A stretch of DNA of 60,445 nucleotides, from the NCBI GenBank assembly GCA_052035325.1, contig JBPOHR010000003.1, positions 1-60,445 on the forward strand, written 5' to 3'. Positions 9,255 to 47,556 of this stretch are shown one piece after another. Made by a program: the position numbers and the translations under genes. The stretch's first letter is position 1, and each line of letters starts with the position of its first letter. Under the pieces are notes generated by a model. The model was given only the letters and a program-made list of their open reading frames with translations, was not told the origin of the DNA and ran no database searches. The stretch is from Patescibacteria group bacterium (GTDB lineage Bacteria > Patescibacteriota > Microgenomatia > UBA1400 > PJMF01).

Positions 9255-9327
9255 GGTCCGGTGGTGTAGCGGTTAACATGCCTCCCTGTCACGGAGGAGA
9301 TCGAGGGTTCGATTCCCTTCCGGATCG
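9255..9327 (+). tRNA. tRNA-Asp (GTC), CCA not encoded
   Basis: Acceptor GGTCCGG/CCGGATC, anticodon arm CCTCC-CTGTCAC-GGAGG, T loop TTCGATT; promoter TGG-TATAAT at 9237-9245. Confidence 0.97.
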
Positions 9328-9339
9328 CAAGAACAATAG

Positions 9340-11058
9340 TTATTTAGTCTTTGCCACAACCGGTGGATCGTAGATCACTAAGCTATACCCGTCATTTCCA
9401 TCTTGATAGGTAGTCTTCTCCAACACACGATATGTTTGGGGAATAACGCAATTTTCTCGAATCACAAACAAAACATTTTTACGTGGTTCGATTGGACAAC
9501 TATCAGGGCTAAAATAGTACTTTCCCAGTGAGTATTCTGGCAAAGAGCGCAATGGATACGATGTTTGCAACAATTGCGGCGCGATGAGTCCTTCCAGCGC
9601 GAGATAGACATATGGTTGCCCTGTAAATCGCCCCACACGAATTGTCTCAAAGTCACTTTGACGTCCAGCAACGGCTTCTGCCATGGTGGTGTCGGCATAG
9701 TTACGATGCCACGGATGGTAATACGTCTGAAAAATACTAAACTGATGTATGAAATATCCAATTCCCCACCCATAACCAATCAACACAATGAGACCGAGCA
9801 ACCAGATAGAAAGGCGAACTATCAATGATTTATGCTCAGATCGAATGTGCTGAAGTGTCCGTTCCAACGTAACTGAAATAAAATACAGTAACGGTACAAT
9901 CATCCAAAAGCTGCGTATGGTACTTGGCACTTCTTGGGTCGTGATTGCAGCTGGCAACGGTGCAACACAAAGCCAGATCGTAAAAAAGACTGCAAGCTGT
10001 CTCTGACGCAAGGTGTTTTTTTGTTGAAAAGCTAAGACAATCCCAACCAATAGAAGCGGTAATTCAATCAAGTAGAACAACCCATGAAATGGTACTACGT
10101 AACGATTGGGTTCGCCGCCTGAGAGAAACAGGAAATCAATAGTCAGATGTTGGGTGTAAATCCCACCCATCGAAAAAAGGGCATTAATAATTTTGTTGTG
10201 ATACGCCCGAATGAGTAGTCTCGCCTCGTGGGGTGTTGCTGTCTTGATCTGTTCATCCATCAACAAAAATGCATCACCTTTGGTAAAGACATTGAGCTCG
10301 TTAAACCGCGCCAAACCAGCAGATGCCATAAATGTCACCCCAAGTGTCAGCACTGTCGTCAGTACGATTACCAATACAGGCAAGAGGATCGTCTTTTTCC
10401 ATGACTGCATCACCCACAATACCGCCACTATCAACAGTGGCAGCACCACTTTAGCACTGTGGTAGCTATACATAGTTAAAGCGGCTGTAATAGCAAATAC
10501 ACTTAGATATAGGACCTTTGTCAGCCACTTGCTAGTGGACTGCATGCTATCAATCAATCGTGTCAGCACATACAAGCTAGCCAGGCCAAAAAAGAACGCC
10601 GCAATCACTTCTTGGGTGCTCCGAGATACGATGATATGCCACGGCGATAGTGTCATCAGTAGCGTGATCAACACACTCTGCTCTTCCGAGACCTTGAGCT
10701 GTTGCAGTAAGAGATACAAGATTCCAAGCGATGCAATGCCTAGGAGTGCGGTGGGCAATCGTGCCGCCCAGATTGAAGTACCAAGCAGCGAAATAAACGG
10801 TATCTGTAGATAGGAAATCAACGCAGGTTTGGGATCAATAAATGAGTTGAGAAATAATGGGTAACCTCGTCCATCTTCATCCATGCCTGTCTGGCGAATC
10901 ATCATCGCGTTGTAGAAGAAAGAAGCCTCGTCATTGTGAAAGCCTGCAGGCAGGGAAGGCAAATGGTATAGCCTTGTCACGAGTGCAAGGATTACGATGA
11001 ACAGAGAAAGTAAGAGAATCATTAACTGAGTTTTGGCGAAAAATCGATGCATAATCAC
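9340..11058 (-). CDS. ArnT/PMT-like (GT-C, family 39/83) membrane glycosyltransferase
   Basis: RLYHL..LPAGFHNDEA..FYNA..IRQTGMDEDGRGYP with the conserved DE pair; many TM helices; SPWH motif. Confidence 0.88.
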   Translation of the reverse strand: MIMHRFFAKTQLMILLLSLFIVILALVTRLYHLPSLPAGFHNDEASFFYNAMMIRQTGMDEDGRGYPLFLNSFIDPKPALISYLQIPFISLLGTSIWAARLPTALLGIASLGILYLLLQQLKVSEEQSVLITLLMTLSPWHIIVSRSTQEVIAAFFFGLASLYVLTRLIDSMQSTSKWLTKVLYLSVFAITAALTMYSYHSAKVVLPLLIVAVLWVMQSWKKTILLPVLVIVLTTVLTLGVTFMASAGLARFNELNVFTKGDAFLLMDEQIKTATPHEARLLIRAYHNKIINALFSMGGIYTQHLTIDFLFLSGGEPNRYVVPFHGLFYLIELPLLLVGIVLAFQQKNTLRQRQLAVFFTIWLCVAPLPAAITTQEVPSTIRSFWMIVPLLYFISVTLERTLQHIRSEHKSLIVRLSIWLLGLIVLIGYGWGIGYFIHQFSIFQTYYHPWHRNYADTTMAEAVAGRQSDFETIRVGRFTGQPYVYLALEGLIAPQLLQTSYPLRSLPEYSLGKYYFSPDSCPIEPRKNVLFVIRENCVIPQTYRVLEKTTYQDGNDGYSLVIYDPPVVAKTK

Positions 11059-11182
11059 CTAGCAGTATATGCTCTGTTTTCTTACATTTCTATATATCGT
11101 ACAGGTCACCCTGCTTGCGTGGATAGGGTGTGGGTGTTATATAGAGAGTGATTTTGTTAGAATCTAAAGTTGTAGAAACAGG

Positions 11183-11256
11183 GCGGGATTAGTTCACTGG
11201 TAGAATGATTCCTTCCCAAGGAATAGAAGCGGGTCCGATTCCCGTATCCCGCTCCA
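11183..11256 (+). tRNA. tRNA-Gly (CCC), CCA encoded, T loop TCCGATT
   Basis: Acceptor GCGGGAT/ATCCCGC, U73, CCA; anticodon arm ATTCC-TTCCCAA-GGAAT; promoter TGT-TAGAAT at 11155-11163. Confidence 0.96.
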
Positions 11257-11371
11257 TAAGTAACAGAAATAAATAGCAATTTACATTGACTGATCCAAAA
11301 TTTGAAACTAATGATAGAGCTTTTATACCTGCTCATAGTAGTGCGCCTGGTGTTTTTGGTATCATTTCTGT

Positions 11372-11818
11372 ATGAAAGACATTCATTTACATGCCAAGTG
11401 GCTTATCAAAGCTCCCCAAACGGAAGTGTTTAACATCATTACTGACTTTGAAAAATGGCCAGAATACTTTCCCAAAGTTGCAGCATCCATACAAGTTACC
11501 AAGCATGTTGGAAACAATCTGGAAATGAATGTAATAATTCATTCGTTTGGTCAAAAGTTTCCAGCAAAAATGAAAACTCAGATCCTTCCTGGAAAGGGCT
11601 TCATTTCAGATAACGAAAGCCCAAAATTTGGCACTTCTGGCCACGAAGAACTATTGCTCTCTGAAGATCTAGAGGGAACAATGATCGATTACACTTATCA
11701 AGTATCTATCCATAAACGCTGGCTCCGTATCGTTGCCAAACCACTTATTGGCTGGTTTTCTATGAAATATTGGGAAAAAGCTGTCATAGATGTACTTAAA
11801 AAAAGGCTAGAGAAATAA
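11372..11818 (+). CDS. SRPBCC/START-like (polyketide cyclase family) protein
   Basis: IKAPQTEVFNIITDFEKWPEYFPKV N-terminal signature and C-terminal helix; TGG-TATCAT 6 nt before ATG. Confidence 0.85.
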   Translation: MKDIHLHAKWLIKAPQTEVFNIITDFEKWPEYFPKVAASIQVTKHVGNNLEMNVIIHSFGQKFPAKMKTQILPGKGFISDNESPKFGTSGHEELLLSEDLEGTMIDYTYQVSIHKRWLRIVAKPLIGWFSMKYWEKAVIDVLKKRLEK

Positions 11819-11948
11819 TCGTATGAAATTTTTTTGCACCCGACATCCAGCCGAAATGACGCTTGCTTTGTAATGCAAAAGATGTAACCTACTTTCAAAT
11901 ATGCTAGATTTCTCGATAGATCTACCGATCAAAAATTGAAAGGAAATA

Positions 11949-12386
11949 ATGCCAATACCACCAGGAGCAGAACGTCATCGGCAACTTGTAGATGAGCTAT
12001 CAACAGATTTTGAACTAGTAGCTCGAACGATTGATTTGGTGAGTCGTCTTGTAGAAAGGTACGATAGGCAATACCTAGAAGACACTATTAATGATGCTGA
12101 GGATAGAATTACCGAAATTTCTGCACTACTAAAAGACACAGCTGAGATGCAGTTGCTCACACCCGATCAGATTAGTATGCTTTGCCTTGGTCATGCTCAA
12201 TATCAACAGGTAATAGCTTTTTGCCAATTAGCGTTGGCTGTCCAAAGTGGTGCAATTAATATTGCTGATCTCAGGGCACAACCAAATCATCAACTGCTTC
12301 GAGATATATACTATACAAATATCTTGGTGAAGTTAGCCGAACCAACAGGTGCCCTGGGAGTTTCCATGGCATCTGTAACAGATTAA
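11949..12386 (+). CDS. Hypothetical all-helical protein (145 aa)
   Basis: ORF with SD AAAGGA and upstream TGC-TAGATT; no recognisable family. Confidence 0.72.
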   Translation: MPIPPGAERHRQLVDELSTDFELVARTIDLVSRLVERYDRQYLEDTINDAEDRITEISALLKDTAEMQLLTPDQISMLCLGHAQYQQVIAFCQLALAVQSGAINIADLRAQPNHQLLRDIYYTNILVKLAEPTGALGVSMASVTD

Positions 12387-12730
12387 ACTGAGATATTGCT
12401 GGGTATTCTACCAAACATTTCAAACCCTTCACCTGGATGACCAAAAGCTTGTTATCTCAATGAGATTATTCCTGTTTCTGCAAATTTTGCTTGGCTTATT
12501 GGTGATAAAACAGAGGTCCAAAATTCATCCTACATCAGCTCTTCATGCCTGGCAGAATCAATCATTCCATTATTTTGCAACTGTTTTAGACTTGTAATCT
12601 TAATACTCGTTTCGCTCCGAGAAATAATTGCATCTGTTCCAGACATATTGCAAGCATTTTGTACCAAAACAATATCAATGCAACTCTTTGACGTATTTAG
12701 ATATAGAGTAATAGATACTTGAACCGTCAT
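12383..12730 (-). pseudogene. Possible pseudogene: 116-codon frame with two internal stops
   Basis: The frame from ATG 12730 reads through TAG 12530-12532 and TAA 12452-12454 to TAA 12383-12385, which overlaps the stop of the convergent gene; no homology recognised. Confidence 0.35.
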
Positions 12731-12751
12731 ATTAACAAGGAAATAACAACG

Positions 12752-13132
12752 TCAGTCAGGTTCTAGAACCAAATTAAATCCAACAACTGCCGCAACGCTG
12801 ATCTCACCAAGCTCACCTGCGCCCTCTGTCTGTGGAGTTTTAAGTTGTGGGCGCTCGCGAACATACACAATCACTTCCTTTTGACGCAGTTCACGAATTT
12901 TGTTGGCTTCTGCAAATATCACAAACTTTCCATTGAGCATAACAATCAGCGCATCGGGTCCAAGTATGCTGATGATCATATCTTTTGCTGTCTTAGCGTC
13001 AAAAGAAGTATTTAACTTAATCTCCCAAGAAGGAAACTGTAATTGCCTTTCCCTAGCCCTGGCTTGTCGCTGCTCGACACGATGTGCTGCATACTCAGCA
13101 ACAGCTGACCCAATTTGGCGAAATATTTCCAT
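12752..13132 (-). CDS. Hypothetical protein (126 aa)
   Basis: SD GAGGG before ATG and a TATACT box at 13154-13159 (minus strand); no recognisable family. Confidence 0.7.
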   Translation of the reverse strand: MEIFRQIGSAVAEYAAHRVEQRQARARERQLQFPSWEIKLNTSFDAKTAKDMIISILGPDALIVMLNGKFVIFAEANKIRELRQKEVIVYVRERPQLKTPQTEGAGELGEISVAAVVGFNLVLEPD

Positions 13133-13189
13133 ATACCCTCGTATTATTCATAAAGTATATCCAATTTCTTGATATACTACATACATCTA

Positions 13190-13262
13190 GCCTGTGTAGC
13201 TCAGTTGGTAGAGCGGCGGTATCGTAAACCGCAGGTCGTCGGTCCGATCCCGACCGCAGGCT
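13190..13262 (+). tRNA. tRNA-Thr (CGT), CCA not encoded, T loop TCCGATC, A32
   Basis: Acceptor GCCTGTG/CGCAGGC, D arm GCTC-AGTTGGTA-GAGC, anticodon arm GCGGT-ATCGTAA-ACCGC; promoter TGA-TATACT at 13170-13178. Confidence 0.95.
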
Positions 13263-13315
13263 CACATAGCATACAATCTACATCTCTTCCGTAGACGAGG
13301 TATACTATATAAACT

Positions 13316-46709: not shown

Positions 46710-46741
46710 AGAACCCTTTCTTGCCTGAGATCAGCGTATAC

Positions 46742-46779
46742 AAAAAAGCCCCAGGCATCAATCATGATTGCCTAGGGAC
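46742..46779 (-). terminator. glyQS leader intrinsic terminator
   Basis: GUCCCUAGGCA-AUCAUGAUUGA-UGCCUGGGGC-UUUUUU; the 5' arm competes with the antiterminator. The SD GAAAGGG lies about 20 nt further downstream, unsequestered. Confidence 0.85.
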
Positions 46780-46898
46780 CCGGTGCCTTGCGGGCTAAGC
46801 AGAGACGTGTGGGCGGTTCCACCCTAGTTCTCACAGAGATCTATCGAAAACTGCGAGCACTTTTGAAAAAATGTGTTAAGACTGGTTGCCAGACCAGT
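46742..46898 (-). ncRNA. T-box riboswitch leader of glyQS with ultrashort Stem I (specifier GGC)
   Basis: Promoter TGA-TATACT (46905-46913); hairpin ACUGGU-CUGGCA-ACCAGU (46881-46898); Stem III CUCGCAG/CUGUGAG; T-box AACUAGGG-UGGAACC-GCCC; antiterminator closed by GGGUCCCU; terminator plus U6. Confidence 0.93.
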
Positions 46899-46941
46899 GT
46901 GTTAAGTATATCACGACAAAGGGACATTCCAGTACGACTAC

Positions 46942-47556
46942 TCATTTTTTTCGTCCAAGCAAGGCAGTTTTATTAGCAATAACTGATTGCTTAAGAAAGA
47001 GCACGTTTTGTCGTATGCTTCTTAATTCTTGAGGCCAAGTGTGATCAGCAGCGATTAGTTGATCCAGTTCACGTAGCAATTCCTGACAATAGGTAAGGGT
47101 TTCAATATAGTCAACACTCGTCACCATTCCCTGCATATCGTTGAGATGTCGTTTTACCAACTCGCGGTATTGAGCTGATCGAGCGGGAATGGCTCGCTTT
47201 CGCTCAAGTTTTCTCTGCATAATGGGATCTATAATGGTTTCTTTCGCCAAAACCGCATCATCTGAGGTCTTATCATGCAAGCTTAATGCCGTTTCCAGTA
47301 AATTGAGCAACCGTCTTTCTCGTTCTGTATCCTGATAGTTGTATAACGTATCTCGTATTTCCCCCAGTATTTCTGCAACCTTTGGCTGGGACTCAAAGAA
47401 GTTGGCAAATCCATAGGCTGGCTCGTCTGAATATGGAAGAGAAGATCTTTTCCTCTCACCCTTAAATAAACTTCTTACAAACGCCACCCACCTCTGCCAC
47501 CTGGTATCTAGGTGGTTGGTACTCTCATTTTTTTGAGGTTCTCTGTCTTTGGGCAT
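46942..47556 (-). CDS. Hypothetical helical protein (204 aa)
   Basis: Long ORF with TGC-TATGTT 8 nt before ATG; charged N-terminus followed by WQRWVAFVRSLF. Confidence 0.75.
   Translation of the reverse strand: MPKDREPQKNESTNHLDTRWQRWVAFVRSLFKGERKRSSLPYSDEPAYGFANFFESQPKVAEILGEIRDTLYNYQDTERERRLLNLLETALSLHDKTSDDAVLAKETIIDPIMQRKLERKRAIPARSAQYRELVKRHLNDMQGMVTSVDYIETLTYCQELLRELDQLIAADHTWPQELRSIRQNVLFLKQSVIANKTALLGRKK

Follow-up and report, generated by a model that had tools for sequence, protein, structure and literature searches.

A reduced T-box leader predicted before glyS in a Patescibacteria genome, with relatives in Patescibacteria and Chloroflexota

In a 2020 review by Zhang, the discriminator of T-box riboswitches is described as the string 5'-RRRxG-Stem III-AA-3' together with helix A1, a 7-nt bulge, and helix A2, where the closing G.U wobble serves to reject aminoacyl groups (PMC7583486, Table 1 and section 5.2 of that review). 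The same review puts the Stem II/IIA-B domain at typically ~70 nt, argues that glycine T-boxes can do without Stem II owing to the strength of the GGC:GCC duplex, and treats as an open question whether any T-box works without a K-turn (PMC7583486). Glycine T-boxes have been noted in Chloroflexi (PMC5622331), and the TBDB catalogue combines the Rfam model with a class II model, the latter run on Actinobacteria and on class I hits whose Stem I is truncated. Here we describe the leader of glyS, the gene for an alpha2 (single-chain) glycine--tRNA ligase (GlyRS), on the minus strand of contig JBPOHR010000003.1 from a Patescibacteria group bacterium (GCA_052035325.1); the 60,445-nt stretch analyzed is called the window throughout. 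We consider it very probable, judging from sequence features, that this leader is a transcription-attenuating T-box riboswitch that senses uncharged tRNA-Gly(GCC) and controls glyS, and that it represents a reduced architecture occurring before glyS genes of Patescibacteria and Chloroflexota.

Architecture and conservation of the leader

The 3' half of the leader is a complete canonical discriminator, comprising a 5'-RRRxG purine string, Stem III, AA, helix A1, the bulge UGGAACC, and helix A2 closed by a G.U pair (Table 1). The UGGA of the bulge is complementary to the UCCA end expected for tRNA-Gly, and the 5' half carries a glycine codon, GGC, that is followed by a purine and matches the amino acid of the downstream GlyRS. 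An intrinsic terminator follows, which is also present in the minimum-free-energy fold of the whole leader and which excludes the antiterminator because its 5' strand overlaps the 3' strand of A1 (A1', CCCUAG). The leader spans 46913-46742(-) and is contained entirely in a 232-nt gap on the minus strand between the stop codon (46944-46942) of a 204-aa open reading frame (ORF) and the ATG (46709) of the 465-aa glyS ORF, the latter lying about 35 nt beyond the terminator end. An earlier note on this DNA had proposed a glyQS T-box at this place, with about 75 nt from +1 to the bulge, GGC in a terminal loop, a 7-bp Stem III, the string AGGG-UGGAACC-GCCC, and a strong terminator. Each of these elements is present, and the distance from the predicted +1 to the first bulge base (U46821) measures 77 nt; it is the gene label that has to be corrected, because the product is an alpha2-type GlyRS with a class II core and an HGTP anticodon domain and the gene is thus of the glyS type.

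Table 1. Positions of the leader elements and of glyS in the window
Feature	Position	Strand	Basis or details
Extended -10, UGAUAUACU = UGaUAUACU (TG + TATACT)	46905..46913	-	Sequence; same TGnTAnAnT box in closest relatives
Predicted +1, A	46898	-	7 nt past the -10; also first hairpin base
Specifier hairpin (reduced Stem I), 18 nt	46881..46898	-	ACUGGU 46898-93 / CUGGCA 46892-87 / ACCAGU 46886-81; perfect 6-bp stem, -6.8 kcal/mol
Gly codon GGC	46888..46890	-	Followed by A, inside the 6-nt terminal loop CUGGCA
A/U-rich linker CUUAACACAUUUUUUC, single-stranded, 16 nt	46865..46880	-	Sequence variable across family
Purine string AAAAGUG = 5'-RRRxG discriminator motif (AAGUG 46862-58)	46858..46864	-	Family conservation
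Stem III, 7 bp, one G.U	46830..46857	-	CUCGCAG 46857-51 / 14-nt loop / CUGUGAG 46836-30
AA between Stem III and helix A1	46828..46829	-	Invariant in alignments A1 and A2
Antiterminator	46772..46827	-	A1 + T-box bulge + A2; CUAGGG-UGGAACC-GCCC core 46827-46811
Helix A1	46822..46827 with 46772..46777	-	CUAGGG / CCCUAG
T-box bulge UGGAACC	46815..46821	-	
Helix A2	46811..46814 with 46778..46781	-	GCCC / GGGU, closed by G46814.U46778
A2 loop, 29-nt insertion ACACGUCUCUGCUUAGCCCGCAAGGCACC	46782..46810	-	
Intrinsic terminator	46742..46777	-	CCCUAGGCA / 11-nt loop / UGCCUGGGG, then C + U6 (46747-42); -20.3 kcal/mol, z=-3.7
UCUCAGGCA, complementary to terminator 3' strand UGCCUGGGG (46749-46757)	46722..46730	-	9 contiguous pairs vs 5.3 in shuffles (0/200)
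Ribosome binding site AAAGGG	46714..46719	-	
glyS, alpha2 (single-chain) glycine--tRNA ligase, 465 aa	45312..46709	-	PF00587 + PF03129; source annotation name

Relatives of the leader were gathered through the GlyRS protein, yielding 80 loci from species-representative genomes, 80 from metagenomes, and 9 from contigs of the closest homologues; upstream sequence was usable in 163 loci (relative glyS loci are labelled L001 and so on, the window WIN). GGGUGGNACC stands directly 5' of glyS in 91 of these 163, giving 82 distinct leaders that are spread over many lineages of Patescibacteria and over Chloroflexota (Ardenticatenaceae, Caldilineaceae, Promineifilaceae, and Anaerolineae). The counts below refer to these 82 leaders or to subsets, namely 78 curated, 80 parsed, and 54 non-redundant leaders, and to the 83 sequences in a model-based alignment, A3. 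A covariance model, R1, was derived from 38 leaders of the family, a set that excluded the window and its closest relative. In the 60-kb window it gave a single significant match (46745-46905(-), 51.3 bits, E=5.7e-10), covering the whole leader end to end, and it matched each of the 83 sources (the window and 82 loci) exactly once. The 13-mer T-box motif alone is weak evidence, with one occurrence in the window against 0.36 expected. A generic promoter and terminator scan of the window reported neither the leader promoter nor the terminator because the -35 is poor and the terminator loop is longer than 8 nt.

All 82 leaders follow a common plan: a short Stem I with the terminal loop (C)UU-U-GGC-A-A, a short linker, (A)AAAG(U/C)G, Stem III, AA, A1 (NNAGGG), the bulge UGGAACC, A2, and the 3' strands of A2 and A1. 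In 78 of the 78 curated leaders the codon is presented by a hairpin of 3-8 bp, within a terminal loop of 5-9 nt. Among the non-redundant leaders GGC is found in 54/54, preceded by U in 51/54 and followed by A in 49/54; an A directly follows it in 70 of the 78 curated leaders, and the 5' half of the loop is pyrimidine-rich, (C)UU(U), across the family. Stem I was poorly handled by the model-based alignment, and the specifier hairpin was tested separately by permuting 5' and 3' flanks between leaders, a procedure chosen over pair counting because an N-padded hand alignment had been built by requiring pairing. The stem around GGC averages 4.54 bp in the non-redundant leaders, compared with 2.53+-0.15 (max 3.09) in 2000 flank permutations, and comprises 47 distinct stem sequences. 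Relatives of the window show compensatory changes in this stem (GUUGGU/ACCAAC, AUUGGU/ACCAAU, and UCGGU/ACCGA).

The discriminator is conserved as well. The string (A)AAAG(U/C/A)G immediately precedes Stem III in nearly all leaders of the family, and each of the 7 pairs of Stem III has undergone double (compensatory) changes in 27-39 of 83 sequences. The AA between Stem III and A1 is found in 67/80 parsed leaders, the bulge is UGGAACC in 78/80 (UGGA likewise in 78/80), and the first A2 pair is G.U in 69 of 82 scored sequences of the model alignment and in 67/80 by a separate parse. Helices A1 and A2 both covary, with the outer pairs of A1 contributing 39 double changes at one pair, and a stable terminator abuts a U-run in 65/82 leaders. 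In A3, 87.3% of cells are paired versus 63.5% in shuffles, and the covariation score is 0.553 versus 0.176 (0/500 shuffles reach it; slid-partner controls give a maximum of 0.103), values that must be read as inflated relative to shuffles because A3 follows the model to which it was fitted and its sequences share phylogenetic history. The shortest family members measure ~120 nt from hairpin to U-run.

Closer to the window, folding its own clade (8 sequences) to a consensus returns three helices, those of the specifier hairpin, Stem III, and the terminator, and compensatory changes are seen in all of them. L081, whose GlyRS is 90% identical, differs from the window by compensatory changes in both the hairpin and Stem III. 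These two leaders alone share the 29-nt A2 insertion, with 3 substitutions, other clade members having 4-14 nt there. Downstream of the terminator, UCUCAGGCA adjoins the ribosome binding site on its 5' side, 12 nt before the ATG, and its pairing with UGCCUGGGG is kept, with changes on both sides, in L081, L003, L087, L167, L168, and L169. In read-through mRNA this segment might capture the terminator strand; alternatively, it might make a stabilizing hairpin at the 5' end. An 8-nt direct repeat, CUUAACAC, flanks the specifier hairpin of the window (46899-46906 and 46873-46880(-)) and is absent from L081; its placement around the hairpin is probably incidental.

Several members vary the common plan. 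A long Stem III capped by the loop motif (U)GGAUAUCAU occurs in L001, L004, L007, L009, L032, L043, L073, L082, L084, L106, and L166 and is absent from the window; lying on the discriminator side, this loop could be a tertiary or tRNA contact. In L100 (756-898) the specifier loop holds GGUGGAAC, which suggests that its specifier is GGA, for tRNA-Gly(UCC), rather than GGC. L064 and L072, and possibly L026, L033, L121, and L141, are family members without a U-run terminator. The Shine-Dalgarno sequence of L064 and L072 (AAAGGG/GAAAGG), just 5' of the ATG, finds a pairing partner in the A1' strand (CCCUUU/CCCUUC), and the same minimal design seems to occur there with a translational (sequestrator) platform. 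The arrangement in the window differs from sequestration in that an intrinsic terminator is present and the ribosome binding site lies beyond it.

Absent stabilizers and the predicted transcription start

The leader in the window lacks both of the devices on which other T-boxes rely to hold the tRNA. Its Stem I is an 18-nt hairpin at the predicted +1, with the specifier in an apical 6-nt loop, rather than a long stem bearing an interdigitated T-loop platform or an internal-loop specifier with an S-turn. The same is true of the family, which has no S-turn, hinge, or elbow platform because Stem I is only 3-8 bp long with the specifier in its terminal loop. The distance from GGC to the first Stem III pair is 28-35 nt (median 31 with a K-turn and 34.5 without), so that a Stem II/IIA-B domain cannot fit. 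Nothing is conserved across the family between GGC and Stem III except RRRxG, and the clade consensus fold contains no helix in the linker between hairpin and purine string. The earlier note's proposal that the leader has neither an elbow clamp on a long Stem I nor a Stem II S-turn is thereby borne out in the window and in the family alike.

The note had also pointed to a weak U/A hairpin (CAC-A-UUUU-UUC-AAAA-GUG, around 46875-46858) that might hide a conserved motif. The hairpin exists, formed by pairing of CAC..UUUU in the linker with the purine string, but it is marginal at -1.6 kcal/mol and hides no such motif. As a substitute for Stem II it was rejected, since its 3' half is the known, invariant 5'-RRRxG string and neither the clade consensus fold nor most of the family contains the hairpin; covariation cannot be read in it because of that invariant half. 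Weak (C)AUUU/AAGUG pairing recurs in WIN, L081, L087, L167, and L029, and a clade-specific role in masking the purine string is possible.

In one further respect, which the earlier note does not mention, the leader in the window is reduced: it also lacks the K-turn that most family members keep. A K-turn lies below the hairpin in 56/82 leaders, with a 3-nt bulge, tandem G.A/A.G, and then U.G or A.G, and the basal helix under it covaries and is mostly 4-6 bp long (range 2-10). Around 46898/46881 the window has neither a GA/GA motif nor a basal helix. The K-turn is likewise absent from L081, L167 (82% GlyRS identity), L087 (80%), L168, L169, L003, and L098 and is kept in equally close relatives, namely L082/83 (83%), L084/85 (81%), and L166 and L001 (80%), which makes its loss recent within the window's clade. 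We considered whether the longer linkers of K-turn-less leaders (29.5 vs 17 nt) represent geometric compensation and rejected this as largely trivial, because the spacing from GGC to Stem III is nearly the same and the former 3' strand of the basal helix is now counted as linker. A separate observation concerns L042, L044, L053, L056, and L075, where a conserved (c)uGUGGCAAAAAAA stands just before the K-turn helix.

Promoter-like sequences adjoin Stem I throughout the family. A -10-like hexamer occurs within 45 nt upstream of Stem I (<=45 nt) in 66/78 leaders, versus 5.6% of control windows inside ORFs. Among leaders without a K-turn the figure is 21/22, the median distance from the end of the hexamer to the hairpin being 14 nt, and a TG extension is frequent. 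A TGnTAnAnT box lies 4-9 nt before the hairpin in L081, L167, L168, L169, L087, and L003; L087 has a full TTGACA / TGnTATAAT pair whose end is 4 nt before the hairpin, and several Chloroflexota leaders have a consensus -35/-10 pair 10-20 nt before the K-turn basal helix. Between the upstream ORF of the window and the hairpin there are 43 nt. These boxes adjoining Stem I, together with a constant leader behind a varied upstream gene, argue strongly against a hidden conventional Stem I, the +1 of the window itself being a prediction; they speak against the far-upstream start that the earlier note had named as what would overturn its proposal. In L039, L040, L044, and L075, among the Ardenticatenaceae/Promineifilaceae leaders, the best promoter is ~95 nt upstream, ~90 nt before the K-turn helix, and an AGAGA-rich hairpin is present in the additional leader sequence.

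Proposed mechanism and alternative explanations

We regard tRNA-dependent function of the leader as a well-founded inference and propose that it would operate as follows. The specifier hairpin would act like an anticodon stem-loop, with a U before the triplet (as U33) and a purine after it (as 37), and its U-GGC-A loop would engage the GCC anticodon loop in a loop-loop complex held by three G-C pairs, which pairing or stacking of U(-1) with A37 and of A(+1) with U33 may extend. UGGCA is the reverse complement of tRNA positions 33-37 (UGCCA), and UUGGCAA would complement the whole of UUGCCAA, the usual anticodon loop of bacterial tRNA-Gly(GCC); the loop assumed here is this usual sequence, whose U32 U33 / A37 A38 flanks the window's tRNA-Gly(CCC) shares. 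Stem-loops with complementary triplets, a 5' U, and a 3' purine are said, in work of the 1970s by Eisinger and by Grosjean, Soll and Crothers, to pair far more stably than free trinucleotides. Such anticodon-anticodon complexes would offer a physical precedent for a bare hairpin that reads GCC, although they are a property of tRNA pairs in vitro whose relevance here we infer.

Binding of the anticodon would tether the tRNA, and the flexible linker would let the discriminator, ~30 nt downstream, capture UCCA via UGGA before the polymerase passes U6. With an uncharged 3' end, A1/A2 and the purine string would close, the terminator would be blocked, and glyS would be transcribed; a glycyl group on the 3' end would clash with the sieve formed by the G.U pair and the purine string, the terminator would form, and transcription would stop at U6. 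In the tRNA-bound state the purine string would track the minor groove, for which it would have to remain unpaired. Because the GGC:GCC duplex is all G-C, the logic for dispensing with Stem II appears here to be extended to the elbow clamp, and the joint loss of K-turn and basal helix makes geometric sense because no helix remains below the specifier to be redirected. In the strictest version of this proposal there are only two contacts, the hairpin kissing the GCC loop and the discriminator on the 3' end, with no other stabilizer and a co-transcriptional decision; we hold this tentatively, as something a little short of an even chance. If true, the two-contact leader would be a minimal tRNA-sensing riboswitch (~120-160 nt), and each T-box accessory termed essential would be dispensable when the codon-anticodon duplex is all G-C.

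Several points weigh against the T-box reading set out above. Where Stem II is missing, truncated Stem I elements have hardly any affinity for tRNA, and transcriptional T-boxes need an elbow-binding platform for fast tRNA binding (PMC7583486). No tRNA-Gly(GCC) gene was found in the window or in any fetched locus, the only tRNA-Gly being the tRNA-Gly(CCC) of the window. The base at U(-1) is C in some members and that at A(+1) is G or C in a few, so that the extended pairing is not universal, and the inflation of the A3 shuffle statistics belongs here as well. In view of the published binding requirements, some helper as yet unseen may have to assist the hairpin, be it a protein, an RNA element specific to the clade, or slow transcription. 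It is unlikely, though worth serious consideration, that the leader is a T-box whose insufficient hairpin is stabilized by a protein, by a tertiary contact such as the 29-nt A2 insertion or the Stem III loop, or by a modified tRNA feature, an explanation that would modify the riboswitch reading rather than exclude it. The conservation of the insertion in the window and L081 and of the loop motif GGAUAUCAU in a subset of the family would suit such a helper; no extra element is conserved family-wide, however, the insertion is missing from L167, L087, L168, L169, and L003, which have the same hairpin, and the shortest members have little sequence left for another domain.

The remaining alternatives deny tRNA sensing, codon reading, or the start site. 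The reduced genomes of Patescibacteria, the loss of the K-turn in the window's clade, and Rfam scores far below threshold (see below) could be taken to mean that the leader is a decaying relic whose terminator damps glyS or is read through constitutively. We find this very unlikely given that GGC, the following A, RRRxG, AA, UGGA, the G.U pair, and the terminator overlap are conserved across two phyla, and that the helices change by compensation even between the window and L081. A canonical discriminator is necessary and sufficient by itself to sense aminoacylation (PMC7583486), and a 5'-terminal hairpin could protect mRNA, so that the discriminator might work alone, sensing the uncharged end of any U73 tRNA, with the GGC hairpin serving stability or protein binding; yet the invariance of GGC in every curated loop while the stems vary freely, the U and A flanks as in an anticodon, and the constrained spacing from GGC to Stem III, which a mere stabilizing hairpin does not explain, make this highly improbable. 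It is barely credible that transcription starts far upstream, for example by read-through from the 204-aa ORF, with upstream sequence completing a conventional long Stem I. Although no terminator was seen between the stop of that ORF and the hairpin, and the Rfam global alignment puts Stem I at 46971-46930, this aligned Stem I has almost no supported pairs and falls in coding sequence. A conventional specifier is moreover an internal loop, whereas here the loop holding GGC closes a 6-bp stem whose covariation is that of a hairpin, the -10 boxes abut the hairpin in nearly all K-turn-less leaders, and the upstream gene differs between relatives (recO in L081, L082, L166, and L168) while the leader stays the same. 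The Rfam-aligned Stem I/Stem II, forced into the upstream ORF, was accordingly rejected as a conventional Stem I. An upstream pseudo-Stem I that Rfam suggested in Chloroflexota L054 falls in a repetitive region that relatives do not conserve.

Genomic setting and relation to described T-boxes

In most close relatives, those just listed, recO is directly upstream of the leader; in L084 a different 418-aa ORF is found there, and in the window the 204-aa ORF (46942-47556(-)), with a weak sub-threshold match to DUF6744, stands between recO and the leader. The gap between recO and glyS seems to be an insertion spot. The tRNA genes of the window lie at 9255-13263(+) and comprise tRNA-Asp(GTC), tRNA-Gly(CCC), and tRNA-Thr(CGT). 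The tRNA-Gly(CCC) has the anticodon loop UUCCCAA (flanks U32 U33 / A37 A38) and discriminator base U and is non-cognate for a GGC specifier. A metagenome-assembled genome (MAG) of Moraniibacteriota (L050:810-3880) carries tandem GlyRS paralogues of 507 aa and 467 aa, with a minimal T-box (38.3 bits) only before the first.

The GlyRS proteins of Patescibacteria and Chloroflexota are 64-70% identical, and the same leader design occurs in both phyla. The two groups may thus share an ancestor or have exchanged the gene, and the shared glyS-plus-leader design is a regulatory character that bears on their proposed relatedness or on such transfer. Many MAG titles among L001-L165 ('uncultured Pseudomonadales', 'Vitreimonas sp.') look mislabelled, the bins being Patescibacteria.

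The Rfam T-box model (RF00230) gave no match at the window leader at its gathering threshold. In an E-value scan it scored 24.1 bits against a gathering score of 93 and matched only Stem III and the T-box sequence, and of 20 family loci scanned none reached the threshold (0/20), the sub-threshold scores being 22-50 bits. Since the family falls below this threshold, catalogues that rely on it likely under-count T-box regulation in Patescibacteria and Chloroflexota. Within the literature searched, we found no paper linking T-boxes with Patescibacteria and no account of a class of transcriptional T-boxes with neither elbow platform nor Stem II, an earlier mention of reduced glyS leaders in older papers being possible. 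At the level of sequence, the roughly 80 relatives show a conserved design outside current T-box rules and Rfam, and we file the leader as a putative new structural variant of a known riboswitch class, conserved in two phyla.

In content, the leader resembles the Firmicute glyQS/glyQ T-boxes (RF00230), with which it shares GGC plus a purine, the absence of Stem II/IIA-B, a short linker to an RRRxG-Stem III-AA discriminator, a UGGA bulge for UCCA, a G.U pair at the base of A2, and a terminator/antiterminator switch, as well as the K-turn in the 56 members that keep it. Unlike these, the family has a terminal-loop specifier with no S-turn, hinge, or T-loop elbow platform above it, the window's clade also lacks the K-turn and basal helix, and the regulated gene encodes an alpha2-type GlyRS. 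The last feature is shared with the staphylococcal glyS T-boxes that carry the lineage-specific insertion 'stem Sa' (PMC4574755, PMC9177973). The 29-nt A2 insertion of the window and L081 may be analogous to stem Sa, located in the antiterminator/terminator domain, although the insertions are unrelated in sequence; as far as published descriptions show, the staphylococcal leaders differ from the window in keeping a conventional Stem I (PMC4574755, PMC9177973).

In shape, the leader resembles the actinobacterial ultrashort ileS T-boxes (6UFG/6UFM, as cited in PMC7583486), which also present the specifier in an apical loop on a short Stem I, have no elbow platform, and place below the hairpin a K-turn of the kind that most of the family has kept. 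Those T-boxes are translational, act by sequestering the Shine-Dalgarno sequence, and read an A/U-rich codon, whereas the present family has no Stem II domain, reads a codon that is all G/C, and, in the window and in 65/82 leaders, uses an intrinsic terminator. Set beside both groups, the leader and its family would constitute a natural counter-example, with strong evolutionary support, to the need for a long Stem I with its elbow platform, for the help of Stem II where Stem I is truncated, and for a K-turn. With members as short as ~120 nt, the family lends itself to asking what minimum is needed to read both the identity and the charge of a tRNA.

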